A stretch of DNA of 64,000 nucleotides from Mycobacteriales bacterium (GCA_036379355.1 DASVGV010000081.1:6923-70922), one strand, 5' to 3'. Shown: positions 9,086 through 22,303, counted from the stretch's first letter. Program-made: numbers and translations. Notes: generated by a model not told the origin, from the letters alone.

Positions 9086-11265
9086 CGGTCGGCTCCGGTC
9101 TGCTTGGCGCGCGCTCGGTGGGCATGCAGCAGCGGCTCGGTGTACCCGGACGGCTGCGCGCGACCGTGCACGATCAGGTCACGGGCGGCCCGGAACGCCT
9201 CGCCGTCGTAGTCCGGGCCCAGGGGTGTGTACGCGGGGTCGCCGGCGTTCTGCCGGTCGACGAGGTCGGCGGCCTTGCGCAGGATCGCGTCGACACGCTC
9301 CTGGTCGACGACGCCGTGGTGCAGCCAGTTCGCGATGTGCTGCGAGGAGATGCGGCAGGTGGCGCGGTCCTCCATCAGGTTGACACCGTGGATGTCCGGC
9401 ACCTTGGAACAGCCGACGCCCTGGTCGATCCAGCGCACGACGTACCCCAGGATGCCCTGCGCGTTGTTCTCGACCTCGGCGTCGATCTCCCCTGCGTCCC
9501 AGGGCCTGTCCAGGTCGACCGGGATCGTCAGCAACGTGTCCAGGTCGGCTCTCGGGCCGCCGGAGGCGATCTCGTGCTGCCGGCGGGCCACGTCGACGCG
9601 GTGGTAGTGCGTCGCGTGGAGGGTGGCGGCGGTCGGGGACGGGACCCACGCGCACGAGGCGCCCGCCGCGGGCTGCGCGCCCTTCTGCGCCAGCATGTCG
9701 TGCATCGCGTCCGGCGCCGCCCACATGCCCTTCCCGACCTGTGCCCGCCCCCGAAGTCCGCAGGCCAGGCCCACATCGACGTTCCAGTCCTCGTACGCGC
9801 CGATCCAGGGCTGGGACCGCATCGCCGCCTTGCGGACCATCGGCCCGGCCTCCATCGAGGTGTGGATCTCGTCGCCGGTGCGGTCGAGGAAGCCGGTGTT
9901 GATGAACGCGACCCGCCCCGCGGCGGCCCGGATGCACTCGGCGAGGTTGACGGTCGTACGCCTCTCCTCGTCCATGATGCCGATCTTGACCGTGTTCCGG
10001 GCCAGGCCGAGGACCTCCTCGACCACGGTGAAGGTCTCGTCGGCGAACGCCACCTCGGCGGGCCCGTGCATCTTGGGCTTGACCACGTAGACCGAACCGG
10101 CCGGCGAGTTGGCGTGCGATCCGCCGGGCCCGATGTCGACCAGCGCGCACGTGACCGTGACGAGCGCGTCCAGCAGGCCCTCCGGGATCTCCCGCCCGTC
10201 GGCGTCGAGCACCGCCGGCGTGGTCATCAGGTGACCGACGTTGCGTGCCAGCAGCAGGGCATGCGGTCGCAGCGCCACGGGGGTGCCGCCGGGACCCGCG
10301 ACCGTCCGCGGCGGGGTGAGCCGCCGGGTGAACGTGCGTCCCGCCTTGTCGACGGGGGCCGCGAGCTCGCCGGTCAGCAGCCCGAGCCACGTGCGGTAGC
10401 AGTCCACCTTGTCGGCGGCGTCGACCGCCGCGACCGAGTCCTCGAAGTCGACGATGGTGGTGACCGCCGCCTCCAGCACGACGTCGCTGACCCCGGCATC
10501 GTCGGCGGCGCCGACGTCGGTTCTCGGGTCGATGACGATCTCGATCCCCAGTCCGTGGTGGGTGAGCAGCACGCTCGACGGGGCACCGGCTTCGCCCAGA
10601 TGCCCGGTGAAGACGGCCGGATCGGCGAGCTCCGCCAAGCCGCCGGAACGCTGCCCGACCTCGAGCCGCCCGTCACGCACGCGGTACCCGGTGGCCGCCG
10701 CATGGGTCCCATGACGCAACGGCACGACGGCGTCGAGGAAGTCCCGCGTCCAGGCAACGACCTGGCCACCCCGCTCCGGGTCGTACGGTCCCGCCGGCGG
10801 CGGGCTGCCCAACGCGTCCGTGCCGTACAGCGCGTCGTACAGCGAGCCCCACCGGGCGTTGGCCGCGTTCAGCGCGTACCGCGCGTTCGACGCCGGGACC
10901 ACCAGCTGCGGCCCGGCAGTTACCGAGATCTCCGGGTCGACATCGGAGGTGTCGATCGCGAACGGCGGCCCGGGTTGTACGAGATAGCCGATCTCAGCGA
11001 GGAACGCGCGGTACGCGGCGACGTCCTGCGGTTGCCCGCCGCGCGCGCGGTGCCAGTCGTCGATCAGCGTCTGCAGGCGTTCCCGCTCGGCCAGCAGCTC
11101 GCGGTTGGGTTCGGCCAGCCGGGACACGAGCAGCGCCAGTCCGGACCAGAAGGTGTCGGGGGCGACACCAGCCGCCGGAAGTGCTTCTGCCTCGACGAAG
11201 GCGGCGAGTCGCTCGTCGACGGCGAGACCGCTCCGGGAGACGCGCCGGGGGTCGGGGCTGCTCAC
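9082..11265 (-). CDS. glcB: malate synthase G
   Basis: 727 aa, which is the malate synthase G size class, with long collinear similarity by eye ('...[26 protein letters not shown]...[14 protein letters not shown]...'). Confidence 0.93.
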
Positions 11266-12632
11266 GCGAAGATCACTCCAGGGTTGAGGATGCCGAGCGG
11301 GTCGAGTGCCTGCTTGATGCGCTGTGAGATCTCCAGCACGTCCGGACCGACCTGGCTCTCGAGCCAGGGCCGCTTGAGGCGTCCGACACCGTGTTCCCCG
11401 GTGATGGTCCCGTCGAGGCCGATGGCGAGTTCCATGATCTCGCCGAAGGCGCGTTCCGCCTGCAGCGTCTGGTCCGCCTGCATCGGGTCGAACACGATGA
11501 GCGGGTGGGTGTTGCCGTCGCCCGCATGGGCGACGAGCGCGATGGTCACGCCTCGGTCCGCCGCAATGCGTTCGATGCCCGTGACGAGCTCGGGGAGGCG
11601 GGGAAGCGGCACGCCGACGTCCTCGAGCAGGAGCCGTCCCCGTGCCTCGAGGGCGGTGATGGCGACGCGGCGGGCATGCAGGAACTGCTCGCCCTCGGCC
11701 TCGTCGGCCGTGGCGTGGATCTCGACCGCCCCGTTCTCGCGGCAGGCGTCCCGGATCGCGTCCAGGTCCGCGGGGTTACCCGTGTCCGTGCGCGCCATCA
11801 GCATGGCCGCACAGGAACGGTCCAGCCCCATGTGCACGGCGTCCTCGACAGCGTTGACGGTGGTGCGGTCCATGTACTCGAGCATGGACGGGCGGGTACG
11901 CGCGGTGATGTCGAGCACCGCACGGACCGCGTCCTCGGTCGCCGCGAACCACGTCACGAGCGTGTGCGCCGCCGGGGCCGCGGGCAGCAGCCGGAGCGTC
12001 ACCTCGGTGATCACCCCGAGGGTTCCCTCGCTCCCGACGAACAGCTTGGTCAGGGACAGGCCGGCCACGTCCTTGAGCCGCGGGCCGCCGAGCCGGACGG
12101 CTCGCCCGTCGGCGAGGACGACCTCCAGGCCGAGGACGTAGTCGGTGGTGACGCCGTACTTCACGCAGCACAGCCCGCCGGCGTTGGTCGCGATGTTGCC
12201 CCCGATGGAGCAGATCTCCGTCGACGACGGGTCCGGCGGGTACCACAGCCCCTCCGCGGCCGCTGCCCGCTTGACCTCCGCGTTGAGCAGGCCGGGTTGG
12301 GTGACAGCGACACGGGTCGCGCGGTCGACGACGATGCGGCGCATCCGCTCGGTCGAGATCACGATGCCGTCCGCTATCCCGGAGGAACCCCCGGAGAGGC
12401 TGGTGCCGGCGCCGCGGGGGACGACCGGGACGCGGTGCGCTCCGGCCCACCGCAGCGCCTCCTGCACGTGCTGCGTGCACTCCGCGCGGACGACGGCGAG
12501 CGGGCGCTGGGCATTCGGGTCCTGGGCCCGGTCCCACCGGTAGGCGTCGAGGCCGTCCGGATCGGTGAGCACCACGCCAGCGGGGAGCGCGGCGGCCAGC
12601 GCCGCAACCGGAGCCGTCGCCTCGACCGTCAT
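11262..12632 (-). CDS. FAD-linked oxidase, glycolate oxidase GlcD-like subunit / D-lactate dehydrogenase family
   Basis: 456 aa. FAD-binding PCMH domain '[14 protein letters not shown]' and C-terminal '[13 protein letters not shown]...[10 protein letters not shown]'. 4-nt overlap with glcB. No glcE or glcF is seen. Confidence 0.88.
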
Positions 12633-12725
12633 GCCATCCCTGCCTCCGACCCGGCGTACCCGAGCCGGTCACCGCAGTCTGCCATCGGTGCGGTTCGCCC
12701 GGATTCAGCCGGGTAGCGCGTTCCC

Positions 12726-14669
12726 ATGGGCCAGAACGTCGCGCAGAAGCTGATCGAGCCCCACCTGGTCTCCGGGGAGATGACGCCGGGCACCGAGATC
12801 GCGCTCGCGGTGGACCAGACCCTCACGCAGGACGCCACGGGCACCATGGTGATGCTCGAGCTCGAGGCGCTCGGCCTGGACCGGGTAAGGACCGAGCTGT
12901 CGGTCCAGTACGTCGACCACAACCTGCTGCAGACCGACAGCAAGAACCCTGACGACCACCTGTTCCTGCGCTCGGCCTGCCGGCGGTTCGGCCTGTGGTT
13001 CTCCAAGCCCGGCAACGGCGTCTCGCACCCGGTGCACATGCAGCGGTTCGGCGTGCCAGGCAAGACCATGATCGGCTCGGACAGCCACACCTGTGCCGGC
13101 GGCTCGCTCGGCATGCTGGCGATCGGGGTCGGCGGCCTCGAGGTGGCGATGGCGATGGCCGGGGACCCGCTCTACCTGCAGATGCCCGAGATCTGGGGTG
13201 TCGAGCTGACGGGCTCGCTGCCGCCGTGGGTGTCCGCCAAGGACGTGATCCTCGAGATGCTCCGTCGGCACGGTGTGAAGGGTGGCGTGAACCGGATCAT
13301 CGAGTACCACGGCGAAGGCCTGGACCATCTGACCGCCATGGACCGGCACGTCATCGCGAACATGGGCGCCGAGCTGGGGGCGACCACCACGGTGTTCCCG
13401 TCCGACGACGCCGTCCGCACGTTCCTCGCCCGCGAGGGTCGCGAGGACGACTACTCCGAGCTGGTGGCCGACCCCGACGCGACCTACGACGTCACCGACG
13501 CGATCGATCTCGGGGCGCTGGAGCCGCTCATCGCGAAGCCGTCCAGTCCCGGCAACGTGGTGCCCGTACGAGAGGTGGCCGGCGAGGACGTGTTCCAGGT
13601 GGTGGTGGGGTCGTCGGCGAACCCCGGCCTGCGCGACTTCGCGATGGTCGCCGAGATCGTGCGGGGCGCGCAGAGCAGCGACCAGGTCTCCTTCGACATC
13701 AACCCCACGTCGCGGCAGATTCTCGAAGACCTGTCGAAGGGGGGCTGGCTGTTCGACCTGATCTCCGCCGGTGCGCGGATCCACCAGTCCGGCTGCATGG
13801 GCTGCATCGGCATGGGTCAGGCACCGGCGACCGGGCGCAACAGCCTGCGGACCATGCCGCGCAACTTCCCGGGCCGCTCGGGGTCGGACGACGACGCGGT
13901 ATGGCTCTGCTCGCCCGAGACGGCGGCCGCCGCGGCCCTGACCGGGGTGATCACCGACCCTCGCGAGCTGCCCGATCGGCTCGGCATCGACTACCCGGAT
14001 CTCGACCTGTCCGCGCCCACGCACGTCAACACCTCGATGCTCGTCGCCCCGCTGCCCCCGGAAGAGGCTGCGGGCGAGCAGCTGGTGAAGGGGCCCAACA
14101 TCGCGTCGCTGCCGGACTTCGACGCGCTGCCCGACCGGCTCGAGGCGCCGGTGGAGCTGAAGGTCGGCGACAACATCTCCACCGACGAGATCCTCCCGGC
14201 CGGGGCTCGGGTGCTGCCGCTGCGCAGCAACATCCCGGCGATCTCGCAGTTCGTGTTCACCCAGGTCGACCGCGAGTACGCCGGGCGGGTCGCCGACCAG
14301 GACGGGCCGCACGCCATCGTGGCCGGCGAGAACTACGGGCAGGGCTCGTCCCGCGAGCACGCGGCCATCGCCCCGCGCTACCTCGGCCTCCGCGTGGTGG
14401 TGGCGAAGTCGTTCGCCCGCATCCACTGGCAGAACCTCGCCAACTTCGGGATCCTCCCGCTCCGGTTCGACGACCCGGCGGACTACGACGCGCTGGAGCA
14501 GGGTGCCTCGCTCTGCCTCGGCGGGCTGCGCGAGGGGCTCGCGGTCGGCGAGCCGCTGCGCGCCACCGCGGACGGCCGCGACATCACGCTGCGGCACGAC
14601 CTGTCCGCGCGGCAGGTCGAGATGGTGCTCGCCGGCGGCCGGATCCCGATGACCGCCGCCCGTACCTGA
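12726..14669 (+). CDS. aconitase-family hydratase (about 650-aa class, catalytic plus swivel domains)
   Basis: 647 aa. Fe-S ligand motifs 'IGSDSHTCAGG' and 'SGCMGCIGMGQ', and swivel-domain 'ENYGQGSSREHAA'. Confidence 0.88.
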   Translation: MGQNVAQKLIEPHLVSGEMTPGTEIALAVDQTLTQDATGTMVMLELEALGLDRVRTELSVQYVDHNLLQTDSKNPDDHLFLRSACRRFGLWFSKPGNGVSHPVHMQRFGVPGKTMIGSDSHTCAGGSLGMLAIGVGGLEVAMAMAGDPLYLQMPEIWGVELTGSLPPWVSAKDVILEMLRRHGVKGGVNRIIEYHGEGLDHLTAMDRHVIANMGAELGATTTVFPSDDAVRTFLAREGREDDYSELVADPDATYDVTDAIDLGALEPLIAKPSSPGNVVPVREVAGEDVFQVVVGSSANPGLRDFAMVAEIVRGAQSSDQVSFDINPTSRQILEDLSKGGWLFDLISAGARIHQSGCMGCIGMGQAPATGRNSLRTMPRNFPGRSGSDDDAVWLCSPETAAAAALTGVITDPRELPDRLGIDYPDLDLSAPTHVNTSMLVAPLPPEEAAGEQLVKGPNIASLPDFDALPDRLEAPVELKVGDNISTDEILPAGARVLPLRSNIPAISQFVFTQVDREYAGRVADQDGPHAIVAGENYGQGSSREHAAIAPRYLGLRVVVAKSFARIHWQNLANFGILPLRFDDPADYDALEQGASLCLGGLREGLAVGEPLRATADGRDITLRHDLSARQVEMVLAGGRIPMTAART

Positions 14670-14720
14670 CGCCGTCCGGACCGTCTCGTCCCGGGTGCGG
14701 CACACGGTCACAATGGCGGC

Positions 14721-17183
14721 GTGAGCGTCGCCGCCGTCCCCACACCGAGAGACGGCGGCCGCGTGCCGTTGCTGTCGGTGCAGGGGCTGGACGCCCACTA
14801 CGGGCCGCGGCAGGTGCTGGCGGGCGTCGACCTGGATGTGTACGCCGGCGAGATCGTCGCGCTCGCCGGGGAGAACGGGGCAGGCAAGTCGACGCTCGTG
14901 CGGTGCATTGCCGGCGACCTGGCGCCGGCGTCGGGAAGCATCCTTCTCGACGGTGAGCGAATCCGCTTGGGACGCACGGCGATCGCTCGCCGGGGAGTAG
15001 CGGTCGTCTGGCAGGACCTGGCGCTGTGCGAGAACCTCGATGTGGCGGCCAACCTGTTGCTCGGACGCGAGCGCCCGCGCCTGCTGCTGTCCGACGCACG
15101 GTTCCACGCGGCGGCCGCCGCGTTGCTGCAGTCGCTGGACATTCCGATCACGGACACGGCTCGGCCCGTCGCGGCCCTGTCGGGTGGGCAGCGCCAGCTC
15201 GTCGCGGTGGCACGGGCGATGCGGGACCGGCCACGACTGCTGATCCTCGACGAACCCACCGCGTCCTTGGGCGTCGTGGAGTCCAGACAGGTCGAACGGC
15301 TCATCCGCAGGCTGCGTTACGAGGGAACGACGATCGTGCTCGTCTCGCACGACATCGACCAGATGTTCCGCCTGTCCGACCGCATCAGCGTGCTCCGGCA
15401 CGGGCGGCTGGTCGCGGACGAGCAGACGGCCCTGCGGCATCCGGACGAGATCGTGGCCTTGATGTCGGGCCAGCCCGTCGACTCCTCCCCGCGCCGCCAG
15501 CTGGACCGGCTGCACAGCCTCGTCGGAGAGCTCACGTCGACGGCGCCGTCGTCCAGCCTGCCCGTGATCTTGTCGGCGCTCGGGACGGCGCTCGCCGCCG
15601 ACAACCTGTGCATCCACCTGCTCGACGGCGACCGGTTGCGGCTGACCGCGGCGGTGGGCATGCCGGCGCAGCTGATGGCGGCCTGGCGGGACCTGCCGAG
15701 CGGCCTGGCCGGCGGGCCGGTAGGAGCGGCCGCGGAGCGTGACGCGACGGTCATCGACCACGACGTACGGTCCGCCCAGACGTGGGCCCCCTTCCGCGCC
15801 ATCGCCGAGGATGCCGGGATCCGCAGCTCGTGGGCCGTACCGGTCACCGGAAGCGGGGGGCTCGTCGGGGTGATCACCGTGTTCCGGCGCAACCTGGGCA
15901 CCCCGCACCGCGACGAGCTCGCGCTCGTGACCCTCTATGCCGGGTACGCCGCGAGCACGGCCGAACGCGACGGGCTGCTCGGTGAGGTCACCGCACGCAA
16001 CCGGGTGCTGGAGACGATCCGCGTCGTGCTCGAGCAGCTGGCGGTGTCCGTGCCGCTGTCGGCCGGGCTCGATGTGGCGATCGACACCCTCCGCGGTGGG
16101 CTCGCCGCCGAGGAGGTCGCACTGATCTCCCGGTCGGGCGGTGACCCGCGGTGCCGCGGCTGGTCGGGCGCCAGCCCGGACGGCGTGCGACCCAGCCGTT
16201 CGGTGCTGGCCGCATGCCAGGCCGACGCGGCGCGGCCGTCGGCGGAAGCCGTTCGGGCGGTACGCACCCCGTCGCACCGGGCGCTGGTCGCGGACGTCCC
16301 GGCCCCGGGCGGGCCGCTCGCGCTGGTCGCGGTCTGGCCGCACGACCCCGTACCGGAGGGGGACGGGGCGCCGCCGGACGCGCACGCCCTCCTCGAGGAC
16401 GCCGCGCGTTCCCTGCAGCTCGCGCTCGAACGAGAGACGTCCGAACGTGCCCATCGCGAAGCGGCAGCGCTGCGCCGTTCCCAGGACCTTCAGCGCGACT
16501 TCCTCTCCCGCCTCAGTCACGAGCTGCGCACGCCGCTGACCGCGATCCATGGGTACGCGGACACGCTGTTGCAGTCGGACGTCATCTGGGACCCCGAGTC
16601 GCAGCGGCGTTTCCTGGAGCGGATCACGGCCGAGTCGGCGCGGCTCGGCCGGCTGGTCGGCGATCTGCTGGACCTGTCCGCGATCGACTCCGACACCCTG
16701 CGCCTGCAACGAGACTGGTGCGACGTGGCCCTGGTCGTCGACGCCGCCCGGGCCTGCCTGCCCATGGGCAGCCTCGGCCGGGTCCACGTCCGGTGTGCCG
16801 AGCTGCCTGCAGTCTGGGCCGACCACGATCGCCTCGAGCAGGTGCTGGTGAACCTGATGGACAACGCGATCCGGCACAACCCCGGCGGGACCACCGTCCG
16901 TGTCGCGGCGTCGGCGACAGATCGCGGAGCGGTCAGGATCACGGTGACGGACGATGGGGTGGGCCTGCCGGAAGGGATCGACGGCCCCGACGGGGGACGA
17001 CTGCGCGGCCCCACCTCCGGCGCGGGCCTCGGGCTCTCCATCTGCCGGGCGATCGTGGTCGCCCACGGCGGCAGCTTGCGTGCCCGACGGCGCGCGCACG
17101 GGACGTGCTGGGAGATCTGCCTGCCGGTCAACGGCCGCGCGGACGAGGCGAGTGCGGCGAACGGGACCGTCGACAGTGGCTGA
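14721..17183 (+). CDS. soluble hybrid protein: ABC-transporter ATPase domain + two GAF-like regions + HisKA/HATPase_c histidine kinase
   Basis: 820 aa with no hydrophobic segments. The ABC domain has Walker A 'GENGAGKST' (nt 14868-14894), Q-loop 'VVWQDLAL', signature 'LSGGQRQ', Walker B 'LLILDEPT' and H-loop 'VLVSHD'. Then come GAF-like 'SSWAVPVTGSGGLVGVITVF', H-box 'RLSHELRTPLTAIHGY' (His codon 16518-16520), 'NLMDNAIRHN', 'DDGVGLP' and 'GAGLGLSICRAIV'. An alternative start is GTG 14763. Confidence 0.85.
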   Translation: MSVAAVPTPRDGGRVPLLSVQGLDAHYGPRQVLAGVDLDVYAGEIVALAGENGAGKSTLVRCIAGDLAPASGSILLDGERIRLGRTAIARRGVAVVWQDLALCENLDVAANLLLGRERPRLLLSDARFHAAAAALLQSLDIPITDTARPVAALSGGQRQLVAVARAMRDRPRLLILDEPTASLGVVESRQVERLIRRLRYEGTTIVLVSHDIDQMFRLSDRISVLRHGRLVADEQTALRHPDEIVALMSGQPVDSSPRRQLDRLHSLVGELTSTAPSSSLPVILSALGTALAADNLCIHLLDGDRLRLTAAVGMPAQLMAAWRDLPSGLAGGPVGAAAERDATVIDHDVRSAQTWAPFRAIAEDAGIRSSWAVPVTGSGGLVGVITVFRRNLGTPHRDELALVTLYAGYAASTAERDGLLGEVTARNRVLETIRVVLEQLAVSVPLSAGLDVAIDTLRGGLAAEEVALISRSGGDPRCRGWSGASPDGVRPSRSVLAACQADAARPSAEAVRAVRTPSHRALVADVPAPGGPLALVAVWPHDPVPEGDGAPPDAHALLEDAARSLQLALERETSERAHREAAALRRSQDLQRDFLSRLSHELRTPLTAIHGYADTLLQSDVIWDPESQRRFLERITAESARLGRLVGDLLDLSAIDSDTLRLQRDWCDVALVVDAARACLPMGSLGRVHVRCAELPAVWADHDRLEQVLVNLMDNAIRHNPGGTTVRVAASATDRGAVRITVTDDGVGLPEGIDGPDGGRLRGPTSGAGLGLSICRAIVVAHGGSLRARRRAHGTCWEICLPVNGRADEASAANGTVDSG

Positions 17184-17871
17184 CCAGACGCGGGTCCTGC
17201 TGGTCGAGGACGACCCCAACATCGTCGACCTCATCCGTGCGAACCTCGCCGTCCGCGGCTTCGACACGGTGGTCTCGACCGATGGTGTCCGGGCCCTCGC
17301 CCTGCTCGAGTCCGCGCGGCCGGACCTGGTGCTGCTCGACCTGATGCTCCCCGGCGTGGACGGGATGGAGCTGTGCCGTCAGATGCGGGAGCGCTCGTCG
17401 GTCGGGATCATCGTCGTGTCGGCGCGCCGGGCCGAGCACGACAAAGTCAGCGCCCTGCACGTCGGCGCCGACGACTACATGACCAAGCCGTTCAGCATCG
17501 AGGAGCTGCTCGCACGGATCGCGGCGACACTGCGTCGCAGCCGTCCGGTCACCTCACCCGAACCGCCCGCGTCCGTGGTCGTCGTCGGCGACGTCGAGAT
17601 CGACCTGGCCCGGCGGCGGGTGCTGCGCGGCGGGCAGGACGTGCACCTCACGCCGACCGAGTTCGCGCTGCTGCGCGAGCTGGCGGTCGACCGGGGCAGC
17701 CTGCTCAGCCATGCCGACCTGCTTCGCCGTGTGTGGGGTGTCGGCTACCAGACCGAGACCGAGTACGTCCGCGTCTACGTTCGGCGGCTGCGCGCCAAGC
17801 TCGAGGTCGACGGGGCGCCGCCGCTGATCATCACCCACCCGCGGGCGGGCTACCGCCTCGCGGCCGAATGA
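17176..17871 (+). CDS. OmpR-family response regulator
   Basis: This is the 3' part of ORF 16954..17871. GTG 17176 overlaps the kinase stop (17181-17183) by 8 nt. Motifs are 'RVLLVEDDPNIVDL...DLVLLDLMLPGVDG...HVGADDYMTKPF' plus winged helix 'EYVRVYVRRLRAKLE...GYRL'. Confidence 0.9.
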   Translation: MADQTRVLLVEDDPNIVDLIRANLAVRGFDTVVSTDGVRALALLESARPDLVLLDLMLPGVDGMELCRQMRERSSVGIIVVSARRAEHDKVSALHVGADDYMTKPFSIEELLARIAATLRRSRPVTSPEPPASVVVVGDVEIDLARRRVLRGGQDVHLTPTEFALLRELAVDRGSLLSHADLLRRVWGVGYQTETEYVRVYVRRLRAKLEVDGAPPLIITHPRAGYRLAAE

Positions 17872-17892
17872 GGCCGCGCGGACTCGTACCGC

Positions 17893-17931
17893 GTTTACGG
17901 ATTGTTTCTCCCGGCGGCCCGATGTTTACGG
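17893..17931 (+). promoter_or_regulatory. direct repeats GTTTACGG (17893-17900), GTTTCTC (17904-17910), GTTTACGG (17924-17931) upstream of the sugar ABC operon
   Basis: Read directly in the relatively AT-rich 165-nt leader between the regulator stop and the SBP start. The spacings are 11 and 20 nt, in phase with the helix and typical of OmpR-type tandem sites. A weak hairpin, CGCGG-N7-CCGCG (17877-17893), immediately precedes the repeats. Confidence 0.35.
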
Positions 17932-18036
17932 GGCGTTCATGGGCCGCGGTCGTACGGTCCGCGTGCAGCCCTGCTGCGCCGGCTCGACGGCGTTCGACCT
18001 CGGCCGGTCCGGACAGACCGTATCCAGGAGGAACCC

Positions 18037-19248
18037 GTGGTTCTGACCAACAAGCGTGTGGCCATGTCGGCCGCGGCGTTGCTCGCCGCCGGGCTCGCCG
18101 TGACCGCCTGCGGCAGCAGCTCGTCCAGCTCCAAGACGAAGCCCAGCAGCGGCGGCTCGTCGTCGACGGCCTCGGCACCCGCCCTGTCGGCAACCTCGTT
18201 CACGCGCGACTTCTCGGCGATGGCCCAGCTCAAGTCGATCGCCGCCGCGGGCAAGGGTTCGGTCGGCATCATCCTGCCGGACACGACGTCCTCGGCTCGG
18301 TACGCCGAATTCGACGCGCCCTACCTCACGAAGGCCTTCGAGGCAGCCGGTCTGAGCTCTTCTCAGGTCAGCGTGAAGAACGCACAGGGCAGCGACAACA
18401 CGTTCGTCACCGACGCTCAGGCCGACATCACGAACGGCGCGTCGGTCCTGCTCATCGACCCGGAGGACGCGGGCACCGGAGCGCGGGTTCAGCAGTACGC
18501 CGCGCAGCACGGCGTGACGGTCATCGACTACGACCGCATCACCCAGGGCAAGTACTACATCTCCTTCGACAACGTCCAGGTCGGCAAGCTCATCGGTCAG
18601 GGCTTCGCCAGCTGCGTCACCGACTGGGGCGTGAAGTCCCCGGTCCTGATCAAGATGGTCGGTGACCCGACGGACAACAACGCCACCCTGTTCGCGCAGG
18701 GCTACGACTCGGTGATCTCCGCGAACCCGTCGTGGAAGGTCGCCGCCTCACCCGCCGGGACATGGACGCCGTCGGTGGCCCTCACCGAGTTCCAGCAGGC
18801 GTACACCGCGCACCCGGACGTGAACTCCGCGATCATCCCGAACGACGAGAACGCGGCGCCGATCATCAGCTACCTGAAGAACCGCGGCATCAAGCCGAAG
18901 ACGTTCCCGATCACCGGCCAGGACGCCACGCTCGTCGGCCTGCAGAACATCCTGTCCGGCTACCAGTGCGGCACCGCGTACAAGCCGATCTACCTGGAGG
19001 CGCAGGCGGCCGCCGCCGTCGCGCTGTACGCGCGAGCCGGGCAGCAGCCGCCGGCAGCGTTGCTGAACGGGTCGACGGCCAACCCCAACGACAACAACAA
19101 CCAGATGCCCTCGGTGCTGCTGACGCCCGAGTGGGTCACGACGAAGAACATGAACGACACGGTCATCAAGGACCAGTTCGTTCCTGCCAGCCAGCTCTGC
19201 ACGGCGGCCTACGCTGCGGCATGCACGGCAGCGGGGATCAGCAGCTGA
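18037..19248 (+). CDS. sugar ABC transporter substrate-binding lipoprotein (CUT2/XylF-RbsB type)
   Basis: This is the 3' part of ORF 17902..19248. GTG 18037 lies after AGGAGG (18026-18031). It has a lipobox 'LAVTAC' and a Ser-rich linker. The periplasmic-binding fold is indicated by 'GSVGIILPDTTSSARY...VLLIDPED...VTVIDYDR'. Confidence 0.88.
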   Translation: MVLTNKRVAMSAAALLAAGLAVTACGSSSSSSKTKPSSGGSSSTASAPALSATSFTRDFSAMAQLKSIAAAGKGSVGIILPDTTSSARYAEFDAPYLTKAFEAAGLSSSQVSVKNAQGSDNTFVTDAQADITNGASVLLIDPEDAGTGARVQQYAAQHGVTVIDYDRITQGKYYISFDNVQVGKLIGQGFASCVTDWGVKSPVLIKMVGDPTDNNATLFAQGYDSVISANPSWKVAASPAGTWTPSVALTEFQQAYTAHPDVNSAIIPNDENAAPIISYLKNRGIKPKTFPITGQDATLVGLQNILSGYQCGTAYKPIYLEAQAAAAVALYARAGQQPPAALLNGSTANPNDNNNQMPSVLLTPEWVTTKNMNDTVIKDQFVPASQLCTAAYAAACTAAGISS

Positions 19249-19250
19249 GG

Positions 19251-20093
19251 ATGGCGACGGACGCCACGGCGGGAGCCCGGTCCGCGGACCGGGCTCCCGC
19301 ATCCTCCTCGGCCGGCGGTGCTGCTTCCGGTACGCCGCTGCTGCGCCTGTCCAAGATCGGCAAGAGCTTCGGTCCCGTCCAGGCGCTGGCGGACATCGAC
19401 CTGGAGGTCTACCCCGGTGAGGTGCTCGCGCTGGTGGGCGACAACGGGGCCGGCAAGTCGACCCTGATCAAGACCATCTCCGGCATCTGGTCACCGGACA
19501 GCGGCCAGGAGTTCTGGGACGGCCGGCAGGTGCACATCCGGCACCCCCGCGACGCCGCCGCACTCGGTATCGCGACGATGTACCAGGACTTGGCGCTGGC
19601 GGACAACCTCGACATCGTCGAGAACATGTTCCTGGGGCGGGAGACCGTGCGTGCCGGCCTGCTGGACGAGACATCGATGGAGCTGTCCGCACGCCGCACG
19701 CTGTCGGACCTGTCCGTGACGACCGTTCGGTCCATCCGCCAGCCGGTGGGCTCGCTGTCCGGCGGGCAGCGCCAGGCGGTCGCCGTCGCGCGGGCCGTGC
19801 TCGAGGAAGCCAAGCTCGTGATCATGGACGAGCCGACCGCAGCGCTGGGCGTGTCCCAGACCGCGATGGTGCTCGATCTCGTGCGCAGCCTCAGCGAGCG
19901 CGGGGTGGCCGTCCTGCTGATCTCGCACAACCTCAACGACGTGTTCGCCGTGGCGGACCGGCTGGCGGCGCTCTACCTCGGCCGGCTCGCCGGAACGGCA
20001 CGCATCGCCGACATCGACAGCCAGCAGGCGGTGGCGCTCATCACGACGGGGTCTCTCACCCCGGTGGGGGCGCATTCCGCCAGGAAGGACTGA
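19251..20093 (+). CDS. sugar ABC transporter ATP-binding protein, single nucleotide-binding domain (about 280 aa)
   Basis: This is the 3' part of ORF 18732..20093. ATG 19251 lies 2 nt after the SBP stop. There is one Walker A 'GDNGAGKST', '[22 protein letters not shown]', one 'LSGGQRQ', 'LVIMDEPT' and 'LLISHN'. Confidence 0.9.
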   Translation: [280 protein letters not shown]

Positions 20094-20098
20094 CCGCC

Positions 20099-21430
20099 AT
20101 GTCGATGCCTCCCTCCCAGGCCGAGCTGCCGGCCGAGTCCACGCCCACCGACGTCGGCTTCGTCGACGAGGCCGCGGCGGGCTCGCCGGACCGGTTCGCC
20201 GTCAACGAGCTGACGGCGAACTCGTTCGTCGAGTACGCACGCGCGCTGGGCAAGCGCATCCGCAGCGGTGAGAGCGGTGCGCTGCCGGTCGTCATCGGCC
20301 TCGTGGTCATCGTGGCGATCTTCCAGTCACAGAACTCCAAGTTCCTGTCCACCGGCAACCTGACCAACCTGATCGAGCAGTCCGGCGTGTTCGTCATCCT
20401 CGGGATGGCGGAGGTCTTCGTCCTGCTGCTGGCCGAGATCGACCTGTCCGTCGGGTACGTCGGCGCGGTGGGCGCGACCGTCACCGCCGAGCTGGCGACG
20501 AACCCGCACAACGTCAACTGGTTCCTGGCCTGTCTGGCCGGCCTGGGTGTGTGCGCGGTCATCGGTGCGGTCCAAGGGTTGCTCATCACGCGGCTCGGCC
20601 TGCCGTCCTTCGTCGTGACCCTGGCGGGTCTGCTCGGCTTCGAAGGGGTGCTGCTCTACCTCATCCAGCACGACAAGGCGGCTACCGGCGGCACGATCCC
20701 GGTCACGAACAAGGTGATCAACGACATCATCAACGGCTCGTTGTCGAACACCGTGGGCTGGATCGTGATGGTCATCGTGGTGGTCGCGTACGGCGCCATC
20801 AGCGTCCTGCAGAACCGCCGGCGCCGCGCGAGCGGGCTCGTGACTGCGCCGCTCGCGCTCGTCGCCATCAAGGTCGGCGCGGTGGCGGTCGTCGGCGTCG
20901 TGCTCGTGCTCGTCTGCAATGCCAACCGCGGCCTGGGGCTGACCAAGCTCGAAGGGGTGCCGTGGATCGTGCCGATCCTGCTGGTGCTGCTGGTCGTCTA
21001 CTCGGTGCTGCTCGGGCGCACCCGGTTCGGCCGCTACCTGTACGCGATCGGGGGCAACGCCGAGGCAGCCCGCCGTGCGGGCATCAGCCTGAAGACCATC
21101 CGGCTGTTCGCATTCGTCCTGTGCAGCGTCACCTCCGGCCTCGGCGGCATCGTCTACCTGTCCCAGCTGGGGTCCATCTCCAGCAACGTCGACGGCGGCA
21201 ACCTCGTGCTGTACGCCATCGCCGCCGCCGTCATCGGCGGCACCAGCCTGTTCGGCGGGCGCGGCAAGATGATCCACGCGCTCCTGGGCGGCCTCATCAT
21301 CGCCGCGGTCTACAACGGCATGGGCCTGATCGGGCTGAGCGCGGCCGCGCAGTTCATGGTCACGGCGCTGGTCCTGCTGGCGGCCGTCACGGTCGACGCC
21401 GTCTCCCGCCGCGGCCGGACCAGCGCCTGA
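20099..21430 (+). CDS. sugar ABC transporter permease (XylH/RbsC-type, with a ~60-aa cytoplasmic N-terminal extension)
   Basis: 443 aa with multiple hydrophobic helices. Motifs typical of CUT2 permeases are 'GMAEVFVLLLAEIDLSVGY' and 'GRYLYAIGGNAEAARRAGI'. Confidence 0.9.
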   Translation: MSMPPSQAELPAESTPTDVGFVDEAAAGSPDRFAVNELTANSFVEYARALGKRIRSGESGALPVVIGLVVIVAIFQSQNSKFLSTGNLTNLIEQSGVFVILGMAEVFVLLLAEIDLSVGYVGAVGATVTAELATNPHNVNWFLACLAGLGVCAVIGAVQGLLITRLGLPSFVVTLAGLLGFEGVLLYLIQHDKAATGGTIPVTNKVINDIINGSLSNTVGWIVMVIVVVAYGAISVLQNRRRRASGLVTAPLALVAIKVGAVAVVGVVLVLVCNANRGLGLTKLEGVPWIVPILLVLLVVYSVLLGRTRFGRYLYAIGGNAEAARRAGISLKTIRLFAFVLCSVTSGLGGIVYLSQLGSISSNVDGGNLVLYAIAAAVIGGTSLFGGRGKMIHALLGGLIIAAVYNGMGLIGLSAAAQFMVTALVLLAAVTVDAVSRRGRTSA

Positions 21431-21454
21431 GCGGGCCCCTATCCTGAGCGCACG

Positions 21455-22303
21455 GTGACGCGGCCGCGGCGAGGAGGTGCCTGGGTGGTGGACCCGGAGG
21501 AGCCGAACGCCGCGGAGCGCCGACGCTGGAACGACGAGCGCTGGACCGAGCGCTGGCCCAAGCGCGAGGCGCTGACCGGCGCGGTCACCGGAGTGCTGCT
21601 CGACGGGCTGGGCCCTGTCGCGGGCCAGCGGCTGCTCGACGTGGGGGCCGGCGGGGGAGGCACGAGCATCGCGGCCGGCCGCCTCGTCGGCGACGGAGCC
21701 GTGGTCGGCGCCGACATCTCCGCGCCGCTGGTGCGCTTCGCCCGTGACCGTGCGGCCGCCGCGCGGGCGGTCAACGTCTCCTTCGTCGTGGCGGACGTGC
21801 AGTGCGACACCGTTCCCGGTGGGCCCTTCGACGCGGCGCTCAGCCAGTTCGGGGTCATGTTCTTCGACGAGCCGAGTGTCGCCTTCGCGAACATCAGAAA
21901 TCAGCTCGTGCCGGGTGGCCGGCTCGCGTTCGCCTGCTGGCAGCCGCCCGAGCGCAACCCCTGGTTCGTCGGTCCGATGCTGGCCGAGTACCTGCCGCCT
22001 CCTCCGCCGCCCGCACCGGGGAAGAGCCCGACAGGACCGTTCAGCCTGAGCGATCCGGACCACACGCGGAACGTGCTGGCGGCGGCGGGCTGGCGCGACA
22101 TCGCGCACCGGGGCCACGAGGTCGTCGTGACCGTCGACCGGTCGGCCCTCGCGGACGACGACACGTTCGCGTCGCTCGACCTGCCCGCCGCGGGTGTCGA
22201 GCAGGCCCGGCGCGACGTCGACGCGCGGCTCGACCGGCTGCGCGACGCCGACGGCCGCATGCGGGCCCCGCTGGCCTTCTGGGTCGTCACTGCCACCGCC
22301 TGA
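21455..22303 (+). CDS. class I SAM-dependent methyltransferase
   Basis: 282 aa. Motif I 'LLDVGAGGGGTS' is followed by 'VGADIS' and 'PGGRLAF'. It contains a 'LPPPPPPAPG' poly-proline run. The start is uncertain; I used GTG 21455. Confidence 0.78.
   Translation: MTRPRRGGAWVVDPEEPNAAERRRWNDERWTERWPKREALTGAVTGVLLDGLGPVAGQRLLDVGAGGGGTSIAAGRLVGDGAVVGADISAPLVRFARDRAAAARAVNVSFVVADVQCDTVPGGPFDAALSQFGVMFFDEPSVAFANIRNQLVPGGRLAFACWQPPERNPWFVGPMLAEYLPPPPPPAPGKSPTGPFSLSDPDHTRNVLAAAGWRDIAHRGHEVVVTVDRSALADDDTFASLDLPAAGVEQARRDVDARLDRLRDADGRMRAPLAFWVVTATA

Follow-up and report, generated by a model that had tools for sequence, protein, structure and literature searches.

Within a 64,000-nucleotide stretch of a Mycobacteriales bacterium (GCA_036379355.1, DASVGV010000081.1:6923-70922; hereafter the window, with positions counted from its first letter), the gene at 14721-17183 (+) encodes a histidine kinase that begins with a complete ATP-binding cassette (ABC) nucleotide-binding domain (NBD) of the type that powers sugar importers. 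The fusion recurs as one continuous reading frame throughout a broad family, and its gene stands beside those of an OmpR-type response regulator and a CUT2-type importer in almost every locus in which the neighbourhood could be judged. Most likely, the NBD pair of the kinase dimer reads the importer and relays its state to the kinase, either by docking on the permease or by following the importer's ATP cycle by another route.

An ABC nucleotide-binding domain fused to a histidine kinase

An earlier note on this DNA, made from the sequence alone, had described one uninterrupted 820-codon frame with the order NBD-GAF-GAF-HisKA-HATPase. The frame was confirmed as a single GTG-started open reading frame (ORF; Table 1), and a Pfam scan placed the families named in the note on this one polypeptide: ABC_tran (PF00005; residues 34-181, E 6.5e-32, 111.4 bits against a cut-off of 25, covering profile positions 2-137 of 137), GAF_2/GAF (residues 280-412, E 2.7e-11; 44.3 bits against 28.6 for GAF_2 and 37.3 against 22.4 for GAF), HisKA (PF00512; residues 591-657, E 8e-19, 67.9 bits against 26.9) and HATPase_c (residues 701-803, E 2e-20, 73.7 bits against 26.4). 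Length of an ORF is by itself weak evidence of a gene here, because an antisense ORF of 1520 amino acids (aa; 12705-17267, -) covers the same high-GC region, spanning both the kinase gene and an upstream aconitase-family gene; shadow ORFs of this sort are frequent in high-GC DNA, and this is most likely one of them.

All catalytic elements listed earlier for the NBD, namely Walker A, Q-loop, signature, Walker B with the catalytic Glu and the H-loop His, were read in the translation. So were the N and G boxes of the kinase core and the phospho-acceptor His codon at 16518-16520, which corresponds to H600. The H-box reads SH600ELRTP, and the stretch H600-ELRTPLTAI is invariant among the aligned homologues. 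In an alignment of 59 homologues, HATPase_c residues N711, N715, D744, G746, G748, G769 and G771 do not vary, while G767 is conserved in at least 90%. PnpS and PhoR were the top-scoring models for the kinase core. Judged from these matches, the protein is a class-I (HisKA) histidine kinase with a PhoR-like core, for which autophosphorylation and phosphotransfer are predicted. The expected lack of a transmembrane segment was borne out by a Kyte-Doolittle profile, in which the highest 19-residue mean (1.65) lies in the first helix of the GAF domain, compared with a peak of 2.86 in the neighbouring permease; as this profile shows no membrane segment, the kinase is predicted to be soluble.

The two GAF-like regions proposed between the NBD and the kinase core fared differently. 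The first is a GAF domain by Pfam (GAF1), with H299, W322 and W371 invariant and C297 at least 90% conserved among the 59 homologues. The second (residues ~440-545) is not GAF by sequence: no Pfam match at E up to 10 was obtained with 12 family members, no profile similarity to GAF1 was detected (hhalign probability 0.2%), and at the level of sequence a second GAF domain was rejected. This region is the most variable part of the kinase and contains indels. AlphaFold2 modelling of the domain alone gave a confident small alpha/beta fold (per-residue confidence score, pLDDT, of 86.8), whose fold matches in the PDB were weak (E 0.002-0.04, template modelling (TM) score ~0.5) and split among Roadblock/MglB, fRMsr and GAF.

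The AlphaFold2 model of the whole kinase, built with 59 sequences, had a mean pLDDT of 80 and a predicted TM-score (pTM) of 0.40. Single domains were confidently modelled (NBD pLDDT 85-95) and long helices were predicted at residues 554-617 and 625-659, whereas the linker between NBD and GAF1, helical but of low pLDDT in the monomer, and the arrangement of the domains were of low confidence. Foldseek matched the NBD model to the transporter NBDs CbiO, LptB and MalK, and aligned residues from ~270 onwards to full-length bacteriophytochromes, following their GAF-PHY-kinase spine. The linker helix has a heptad-like pattern (L261/L264/V268/L271), a spacing that suggests a dimeric coiled coil. R258, Q260, L261, R263, L264, L267 and L271 are invariant in the 59-homologue alignment.

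A missed stop or frameshift that joined an ABC ATPase gene to a GAF-kinase gene would produce the same apparent architecture. Such an artefact gains some credit from the source of the window, a metagenome-assembled genome (MAG), from the long spurious ORFs that arise in high-GC DNA, and from frame breaks in a few related loci (L032, L043 and L058). The breadth of the family nevertheless makes it vanishingly improbable. A protein identical to the window kinase is present in NCBI (P0001, 'MAG TPA: ATP-binding cassette domain-containing protein [Mycobacteriales bacterium]'), and at least 120 clusters of full-length homologues, at 57-78% identity, have the same Pfam architecture. A scan of one genome per GTDB species with residues 196-470, which span the NBD-GAF junction, returned ~160 relatives, of which the best 80 loci were kept. 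The query aligned end to end in all 80, and Walker A and H-box lie in one stop-to-stop ORF in 71 of them; the other nine are contig-end cuts, minor motif variants or frame breaks. The junction itself (residues 240-275) is conserved and includes invariant residues. The same continuous ORF occurs in hundreds of independent assemblies from various projects and sequencing platforms, as well as in Streptomyces isolate genomes. For practical purposes, then, these comparisons exclude an assembly artefact, and the fusion proposed in the note is, as judged from the sequences, real.

All 80 loci come from MAGs, nearly all labelled Actinomycetota, and the carriers fall in the Mycobacteriales/Frankiales, 'Streptosporangiaceae', Solirubrobacterales and Acidimicrobiales, mostly from soil, peat and fen. 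No cultured organism was found among the named cluster members of ten homologues; a search with a divergent member brought up two from culture, Streptomyces sp. NPDC050997 (GCA_040660135.1, contig JBFAGK010000006.1, module at ~260.8-267.9 kb) and Streptomyces spongiae. Full-length identity between the Streptomyces protein and the window kinase is 46%, and members with 35-45% identity in the sensor region retain Walker A, the Q-loop, the signature (as variants), Walker B with its Glu and the H-loop. One Streptosporangiaceae MAG (DATIXO01) carries one kinase copy on each of two separate contigs (L024 and L027), so some genomes may hold two paralogous modules. A protein of 585 aa (P0171, encoded at 827-2584 of L085) has the linker helix, both sensor domains and the kinase core without an NBD, and no NBD-like sequence is present in the 826 nucleotides (nt) upstream of its gene; a regulator gene follows, and the 2.9-kb contig ends before any transporter could be judged.

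The earlier note knew of no characterised member, and none was found. No description of an NBD-histidine kinase fusion was retrieved from the full-text literature, whose coverage of subscription journals is thin and therefore gives no proof, and no PDB entry joins an NBD to a histidine kinase, either by sequence or by fold. One paper that seemed at first to match deals with a Ser/Thr kinase bearing a MalT-like domain and has no bearing on the fusion. Databases already annotate the architecture automatically ('ATP-binding cassette domain-containing protein' in NCBI, 'histidine kinase/ABC-type ... ATPase subunit' in JGI), so the sequence family is unstudied rather than unseen.

A five-gene module with a CUT2-type importer and a predicted operator

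The linkage to a CUT2-type transporter for which the earlier note had proposed a search proved to be conserved. Among the 59 loci with at least 6.8 kb of downstream sequence, which were treated as informative, 58 contain a regulator, binding protein, ATPase and permease, and in 57 of these complete loci gene order and strand are as in the window. Clustering of ORFs of at least 150 aa within ~10 kb gave no further conserved neighbour. Catabolic genes that might name the transported sugar were sought among these neighbours without success; only lineage-specific housekeeping genes (e.g., extracytoplasmic function (ECF) sigma factor, riboflavin genes) were found.

The sole exception, L032 (9410-11990, MAG MFD00008.bin.2.170), is without regulator and transporter. 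Its kinase gene runs in two separate frames, with Walker A altered to GENGVGKT, while the sigma-factor and riboflavin genes that flank the site correspond to those in sister genomes. Because the broken kinase coincides with the loss of regulator and transporter, this locus fits a module that decays as a unit, although errors in sequencing could account for its frame breaks.

A CUT2 importer is adjacent in distant relatives too, even where it is of another type. A metagenome contig of 44.5% GC (L083, 1861-8609) has the same five-gene module with the half-size type of ATPase, which indicates that the family may reach beyond high-GC Actinomycetota. L086 (3860-10668), L088 (1735-7645) and L090 (9001-16005, Streptomyces sp. 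NPDC050997) instead have CUT2 importers with a tandem-NBD ATPase of 501-520 aa, and their gene order is unlike that of the window. In eight loci (e.g., L020-L022) there are two permease genes, and the binding protein diverges more.

A second conserved feature of the module, which the earlier note does not mention, lies between the regulator and binding-protein genes, where four direct GTTnAC-like hexamers with 11-bp phasing precede a -10-like hexamer (Table 1). Of 65 spacers between regulator and binding-protein genes, 48 contain the strict four-hexamer pattern, which occurs once in the window; outside these spacers it had no match in 2.36 Mb of flanking DNA, searched on both strands. When one base of slack was allowed in the spacings, the pattern was found in 61 of the 65 spacers with 2 matches elsewhere, and a TAnnnT hexamer (usually TAnGGT) follows the array by 11-12 nt in 57 of these 61. 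The same layout is present in the low-GC locus L083 (TTTCAC-n5-TTTCAT-n14-TTTCAT-n5-TTTCAC, then TATAGT), in the tandem-ATPase loci L086 and L088, and in the Streptomyces locus L090. Direct repeats with 11-bp phasing that lie beside a -10 element and replace the -35 are typical of OmpR/PhoB-type activators. The array at 17893-17958 is thus probably the regulator's operator together with the importer promoter, a candidate assignment made from pattern and position, and as the conserved array resembles sites of OmpR/PhoB-type activators the importer operon is very likely the target of the regulator. No sigma-70 promoters or intrinsic terminators were identified in 14400-21700, as expected for high-GC Actinomycetota.

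Within the window, the stop codon of the kinase gene (TGA, 17181-17183) lies beyond the GTG start of the regulator gene (17176), which gives the 8-nt overlap reported before. The placement of this pair upstream of a binding protein-ATPase-permease operon was likewise upheld by the identification of Peripla_BP_4, single-NBD ATPase and BPD_transp_2 products, and the locus is a self-contained five-gene module of kinase, regulator, sugar-binding lipoprotein, ATPase and permease. The closest NCBIfam models of the regulator were MtrA and PhoB, both under their cut-offs, and its counterparts in related loci are 69-86% identical. The binding protein has XylF and ChvE matches below the NCBIfam cut-offs and a lipobox (LAVTAC), and most likely starts at GTG 18038, behind the ribosome-binding site AGGAGGA. 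The ATPase gene begins 2 nt after the stop of the binding-protein gene and the permease gene 5 nt after that of the ATPase gene. A coupling motif is present in the permease at residues 312-329 (RYLYAIGGNAEAARRAGI; window permease, GGNAEAARRAGI), and its general form, RYxYAIGGNxEAARRAGI/V, is essentially invariant across related loci.

A Peripla_BP_4-type binding protein and a BPD_transp_2 permease assign these neighbours to CUT2 (transporter classification (TC) 3.A.1.2). Canonical CUT2 ATPases such as RbsA and XylG consist of two fused, non-identical NBDs in ~500 aa, a form from which the window ATPase, with 280 aa and a single NBD, departs. The half-size form also occurs in an Arthrobacter operon, where binding protein, ATPase and permease are encoded together with a ROK regulator; this ATPase shows 54% identity with the window ATPase and 45% with the kinase NBD.

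Table 1 Features of the kinase gene and the adjoining module, in window coordinates.
Feature	Position	Strand	Details and basis
NBD-GAF-(GAF-like)-HisKA-HATPase_c histidine kinase gene	14721..17183	+	GTG start, TGA stop, 820 aa; ORF and Pfam
ABC nucleotide-binding domain, residues 17-250	14769..15470	+	Pfam, NCBIfam, alignment, AlphaFold2, Foldseek
Walker A GENGAGKST, residues 50-58	14868-14894	+	translation
Q-loop Q98	15012-15014	+	translation
LSGGQ signature, residues 153-157	15177-15191	+	translation
Walker B LLILD177 and E178	15237-15254	+	translation
H-loop H210	15348-15350	+	translation
Linker helix from NBD to GAF1, residues 257-271 (PRRQLDRLHSLVGEL)	15489..15533	+	conservation, model
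GAF domain 1, residues 276-420	15546..15980	+	Pfam GAF_2/GAF; pLDDT ~90
Second small alpha/beta sensor-like domain, residues ~440-545	16038..16355	+	AlphaFold2 fold
Signalling helix and dimerisation and histidine phosphotransfer (DHp) domain (HisKA), residues 554-659	16380..16697	+	Pfam, alignment, AlphaFold2
HATPase_c catalytic ATP-binding domain, residues 665-805	16713..17135	+	Pfam; N, G1 and G2 boxes
OmpR/PhoB-type response regulator, 231 aa	17176..17871	+	Pfam Response_reg and Trans_reg_C
Predicted regulator operator, four direct hexamers	17893..17940	+	GTTTAC-n5-GTTTCT-n14-GTTTAC-n5-GTTCAT
-10-like TACGGT	17953-17958	+	12 nt past the hexamer array
Sugar-binding lipoprotein (Peripla_BP_4, XylF/ChvE-like)	18038..19248	+	Pfam, NCBIfam, translation
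Transporter ATPase, single NBD (half-size CUT2/XylG type), 280 aa	19251..20093	+	Pfam, NCBIfam
Permease (BPD_transp_2, GguB/XylH-like), 443 aa	20099..21430	+	Pfam, NCBIfam; ~12 hydrophobic segments

Elsewhere in the window, an aconitase-family gene (12726-14669, +; 647 aa) ends 51 nt upstream of the kinase start and is probably unrelated, since it is conserved next to the module in no other locus. A methyltransferase gene downstream is not conserved at related loci either. ORFs at 9118-12141 (+; 1007 aa) and 12145-12543 (+; 132 aa) gave no Pfam match at E up to 0.001 and may or may not be genuine genes in this high-GC DNA.

What the nucleotide-binding domains may read

The kinase NBD resembles the ATPases of the importers beside which it is encoded. 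Its best NCBIfam matches were YtfR, AraG, XylG and RbsA, all to their N-terminal halves only, which is why the whole-protein cut-offs were not reached, and by these matches it is an ordinary member of the CUT2/XylG-type ATPase subfamily, predicted to hydrolyse ATP. The catalytic motifs are invariant in alignments of 20 and of 59 homologues, except for G155, which is at least 90% conserved among the 59. A recent copy of the neighbouring gene was considered as the origin of the NBD and rejected, since it is 43% identical to the neighbouring transporter ATPase and 44-48% identical to unrelated half-size CUT2 ATPases on plasmids or chromids of Actinomycetota and Rhizobia. Mean identities to the window across 53 loci were 75.1% for the regulator, 66.5% for the transporter ATPase, 65.8% for the kinase NBD, 62.3% for the binding protein, 59.6% for the kinase core, 57.0% for the permease and 50.9% for the GAF region. 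The NBD is thus the most conserved part of the kinase, on par with the transporter ATPase, and these values point to strong selection on it.

In transporters, the permease coupling helix is received by the region of the Q-loop and the helical subdomain. Across the fusion family, most positions of the corresponding kinase stretch, VVWQDLALCxNLDVxxNLLLGRE (Q-loop and first helix of the helical subdomain), are invariant, and the neighbouring ATPase and the unrelated Arthrobacter XylG-type ATPase have almost the same sequence. Covariation between the NBD groove and the permease coupling helix was uninformative across 58 gene triplets because both sides are essentially invariant. One Nocardioidaceae MAG locus (L074, 58-2388) has LNDARRQ in place of LSGGQRQ and a deletion after Walker A, with an intact Q-loop stretch, a possible case of weakened ATP-sandwich dimerisation with the putative permease-contact region retained.

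Of the two routes by which the NBD pair may read the importer, docking on the permease is preferred over the rival readings, but tentatively, as a proposal that we would not quite back when taken by itself. The phosphorylated regulator would bind the hexamer array and activate the importer operon. In the kinase dimer, the two NBDs would form the usual ATP-sandwich pair and dock on the coupling helices of the CUT2 permease, in the place otherwise taken by the ATPase subunits of the transporter. On the outer face, a binding protein loaded with substrate would then dock and so drive NBD closure and ATP hydrolysis in the cytoplasm. The changed distance between the NBD C-termini would be transmitted along the linker helix and GAF spine to the DHp domain, where it would determine how far kinase or phosphatase activity prevails, and GAF1 may contribute a ligand input from inside the cell. 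Through the transporter, a kinase that has neither a membrane nor an extracellular part could thus learn of sugar outside the cell or of transport activity. Taken to its full extent, the kinase dimer would be a signalling stand-in for the transporter ATPase, a one-polypeptide 'ABC transceptor' that converts a loaded binding protein into kinase output, which we regard as possible but rather doubtful. Docking would explain the CUT2 type of the input domain, the linkage across importer subtypes and the sensing of an external sugar without an outer domain. The C-terminal GAF-kinase extension would not obstruct it, because the C-terminal domains of MalK, MetN and ModC hang below the NBD dimer, away from the membrane.

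Several observations weigh against docking. Synteny with an importer is expected for any two-component system that regulates one and hence is no proof by itself. Conservation around the Q-loop could reflect ATP hydrolysis or folding rather than permease contact, and the stretch is a general signature of this ATPase subfamily; moreover, the NBD is no closer to its neighbour than to the unrelated CUT2 ATPases. Every complete locus retains a separate transporter ATPase, with which the kinase would therefore have to compete. The second helix of the helical subdomain reads 'SDxRFHAAAA' in the kinase and 'EVSMELTAK' in the ATPase, each version being conserved, and if this helix touches the permease the two proteins would dock differently. 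Variant signatures in some members (LNDARRQ in L074, LAGGERQ in Streptomyces, LSGGRRQ/LSGGERQ in P0248 and P0267) may weaken ATP-sandwich dimerisation there. The whole-kinase model, finally, has a low pTM and leaves the linker and the arrangement of the domains uncertain.

The divergent helix and the retained ATPase would also suit an NBD that serves as a cytoplasmic ATP switch, closing on ATP and reopening after hydrolysis without contacting the permease. So would the NBD-less protein P0171 with its regulator gene, which demonstrates that the GAF-kinase chassis can stand alone. In this reading, the kinase would sense the ATP/ADP level or have a reset timed by hydrolysis, and GAF1 would bind the specific signal, such as the imported sugar or a metabolite, with the module still regulating the importer. 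Complete and conserved motifs for ATP binding and hydrolysis are in keeping with such a switch, as are the conserved linker helix into GAF1 and the invariant H299, W322 and W371 of GAF1 itself. However, a switch leaves unexplained why the input NBD is of CUT2 type and why a CUT2 importer is the constant partner across importer subtypes; the permease-contact region is preserved as strictly as the catalytic residues, and one would not expect a sensor of general energy status to be linked to one sugar importer alone. We consider the cytoplasmic switch, in any of its versions, somewhat unlikely.

Contact with the transporter could also be made through its ATPase, in a mixed dimer of the kinase NBD with the half-size subunit, or the kinase could control transport after translation as an effector. 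A head-to-tail mixed dimer is sterically plausible, because the two proteins are 43% identical and nearly the same in the signature, in DEPTAxLGV (Walker B and D-loop) and in the Q-loop region, and canonical CUT2 ATPases do pair two non-identical NBDs. Sequestration of MalT by MalK links an importer ATPase to regulation. An effector role has a precedent in KdpD, whose N-terminal P-loop domain controls the KdpFABC pump after translation (PMC11018627). Against a mixed dimer, the relatives L086, L088 and L090 adjoin tandem ATPases that already supply both NBDs in one chain, so pairing of this kind is not a general mechanism. The Arthrobacter transporter of the same type works without such a kinase, under a ROK regulator, and dimerisation of the kinase would bring its own two NBDs close together, favouring a homodimer. 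Engagement of the ATPase, or effector control, is accordingly quite improbable.

Relation to known systems and significance

The closest functional parallels are systems in which a kinase follows the state of a transporter. In PstSCAB-PhoU-PhoR/PhoB, and similarly in the mycobacterial SenX3-RegX3/PhoU system, a kinase without a ligand-binding outer domain follows the state of an ABC importer, its ATPase PstB included, and so receives information on a nutrient outside the cell (PMC9239213, PMC12301784). The predicted operator is also built like a pho box, with direct repeats in 11-bp phasing that replace the -35. In the Pho system, however, transporter ATPase, adaptor PhoU and kinase are separate proteins and PhoR is membrane-anchored with a PAS domain, whereas the window kinase is soluble and has the NBD in its own chain, the module lacks a PhoU, and its importer is of the CUT2 sugar type. 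In BceAB-BceS, kinase activity is set by the cycle of the cognate ABC transporter, which the kinase in turn induces (PMC4513084, PMC10314905), and both features would be shared by the arrangement proposed here. BceS differs in that it is an intramembrane kinase, with two helices in the membrane, and binds its permease, BceB; the ATPase BceA is a separate protein, and Bce systems serve the export of, or protection against, peptide antibiotics. The window kinase has no membrane segment and carries the NBD itself, and the neighbouring permease is of the BPD_transp_2 and not the FtsX-like type.

KdpD offers a likeness in domain order, since its DHp is preceded by a P-loop NTPase domain at the N-terminus and by a GAF domain; it is also encoded beside the transporter that it controls, and acts on the pump through its N-terminal domain (PMC11018627, PMC2714519). 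That domain belongs to the KdpD family (PF02702), and KdpD further differs by a Usp domain, four membrane helices and a P-type ATPase partner; neither the KdpD N-terminal domain nor a Usp domain was detected in the window kinase by Pfam at E up to 0.1. XylFII-LytS, ChvE-VirA and LuxP-LuxQ resemble the module in placing sugar ABC importers under two-component control, with a periplasmic binding-protein fold as primary sensor (PMC8050422). In those systems, contact is made between the binding protein and the extracellular domain of a membrane-bound kinase; since the window kinase has no extracellular or membrane part, a signal from the binding protein would have to cross the permease.

Actinobacterial importers of the XylFGH type share the Peripla_BP_4 protein, the 280-aa single-NBD ATPase and the BPD_transp_2 permease, but are governed by a ROK-family repressor/activator, with no kinase and no extra NBD. 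DosS/DosT and the bacteriophytochromes are soluble dimeric kinases in which tandem GAF-like domains lead through long helices to the DHp, a general plan that the window kinase resembles, although its second domain is only weakly GAF-like in predicted fold. DosS/DosT have HisKA_3, a NarL-type regulator and haem, phytochromes bind bilin, and none of them has an NBD in front; the DHp here is HisKA (PF00512) and the OmpR-type regulator has a Trans_reg_C output. With the defining features of each type absent, the kinase is not of Bce, KdpD or DosS type.

The kinase can be regarded as a two-component sensor whose input domain is of a new class, and would represent transporter-coupled sensing in covalent form. 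Signalling from ABC transporters to kinases is still debated, and the Pst/PhoU/PhoR and BceAB/BceS systems depend on weak multi-protein interactions; an NBD-kinase fusion is a simpler system, in which ATP binding, NBD closure and kinase output are measurable in one protein. The fusion stands beside one CUT2 importer and a recognisable predicted operator, and its dependence on the permease is cleanly testable; although the family resides mainly in uncultured soil and peat Actinomycetota, the cultured Streptomyces members enable experiments. If docking is true, two-component systems would gain a further class of input domain and a cytosolic kinase would have a way to sense an extracellular nutrient, and an 'ABC transceptor' would be the natural covalent counterpart of Pst-PhoU-PhoR and BceAB-BceS. 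Even as no more than an ATP-gated switch, the NBD would be an uncommon kinase input with a link to energy status.

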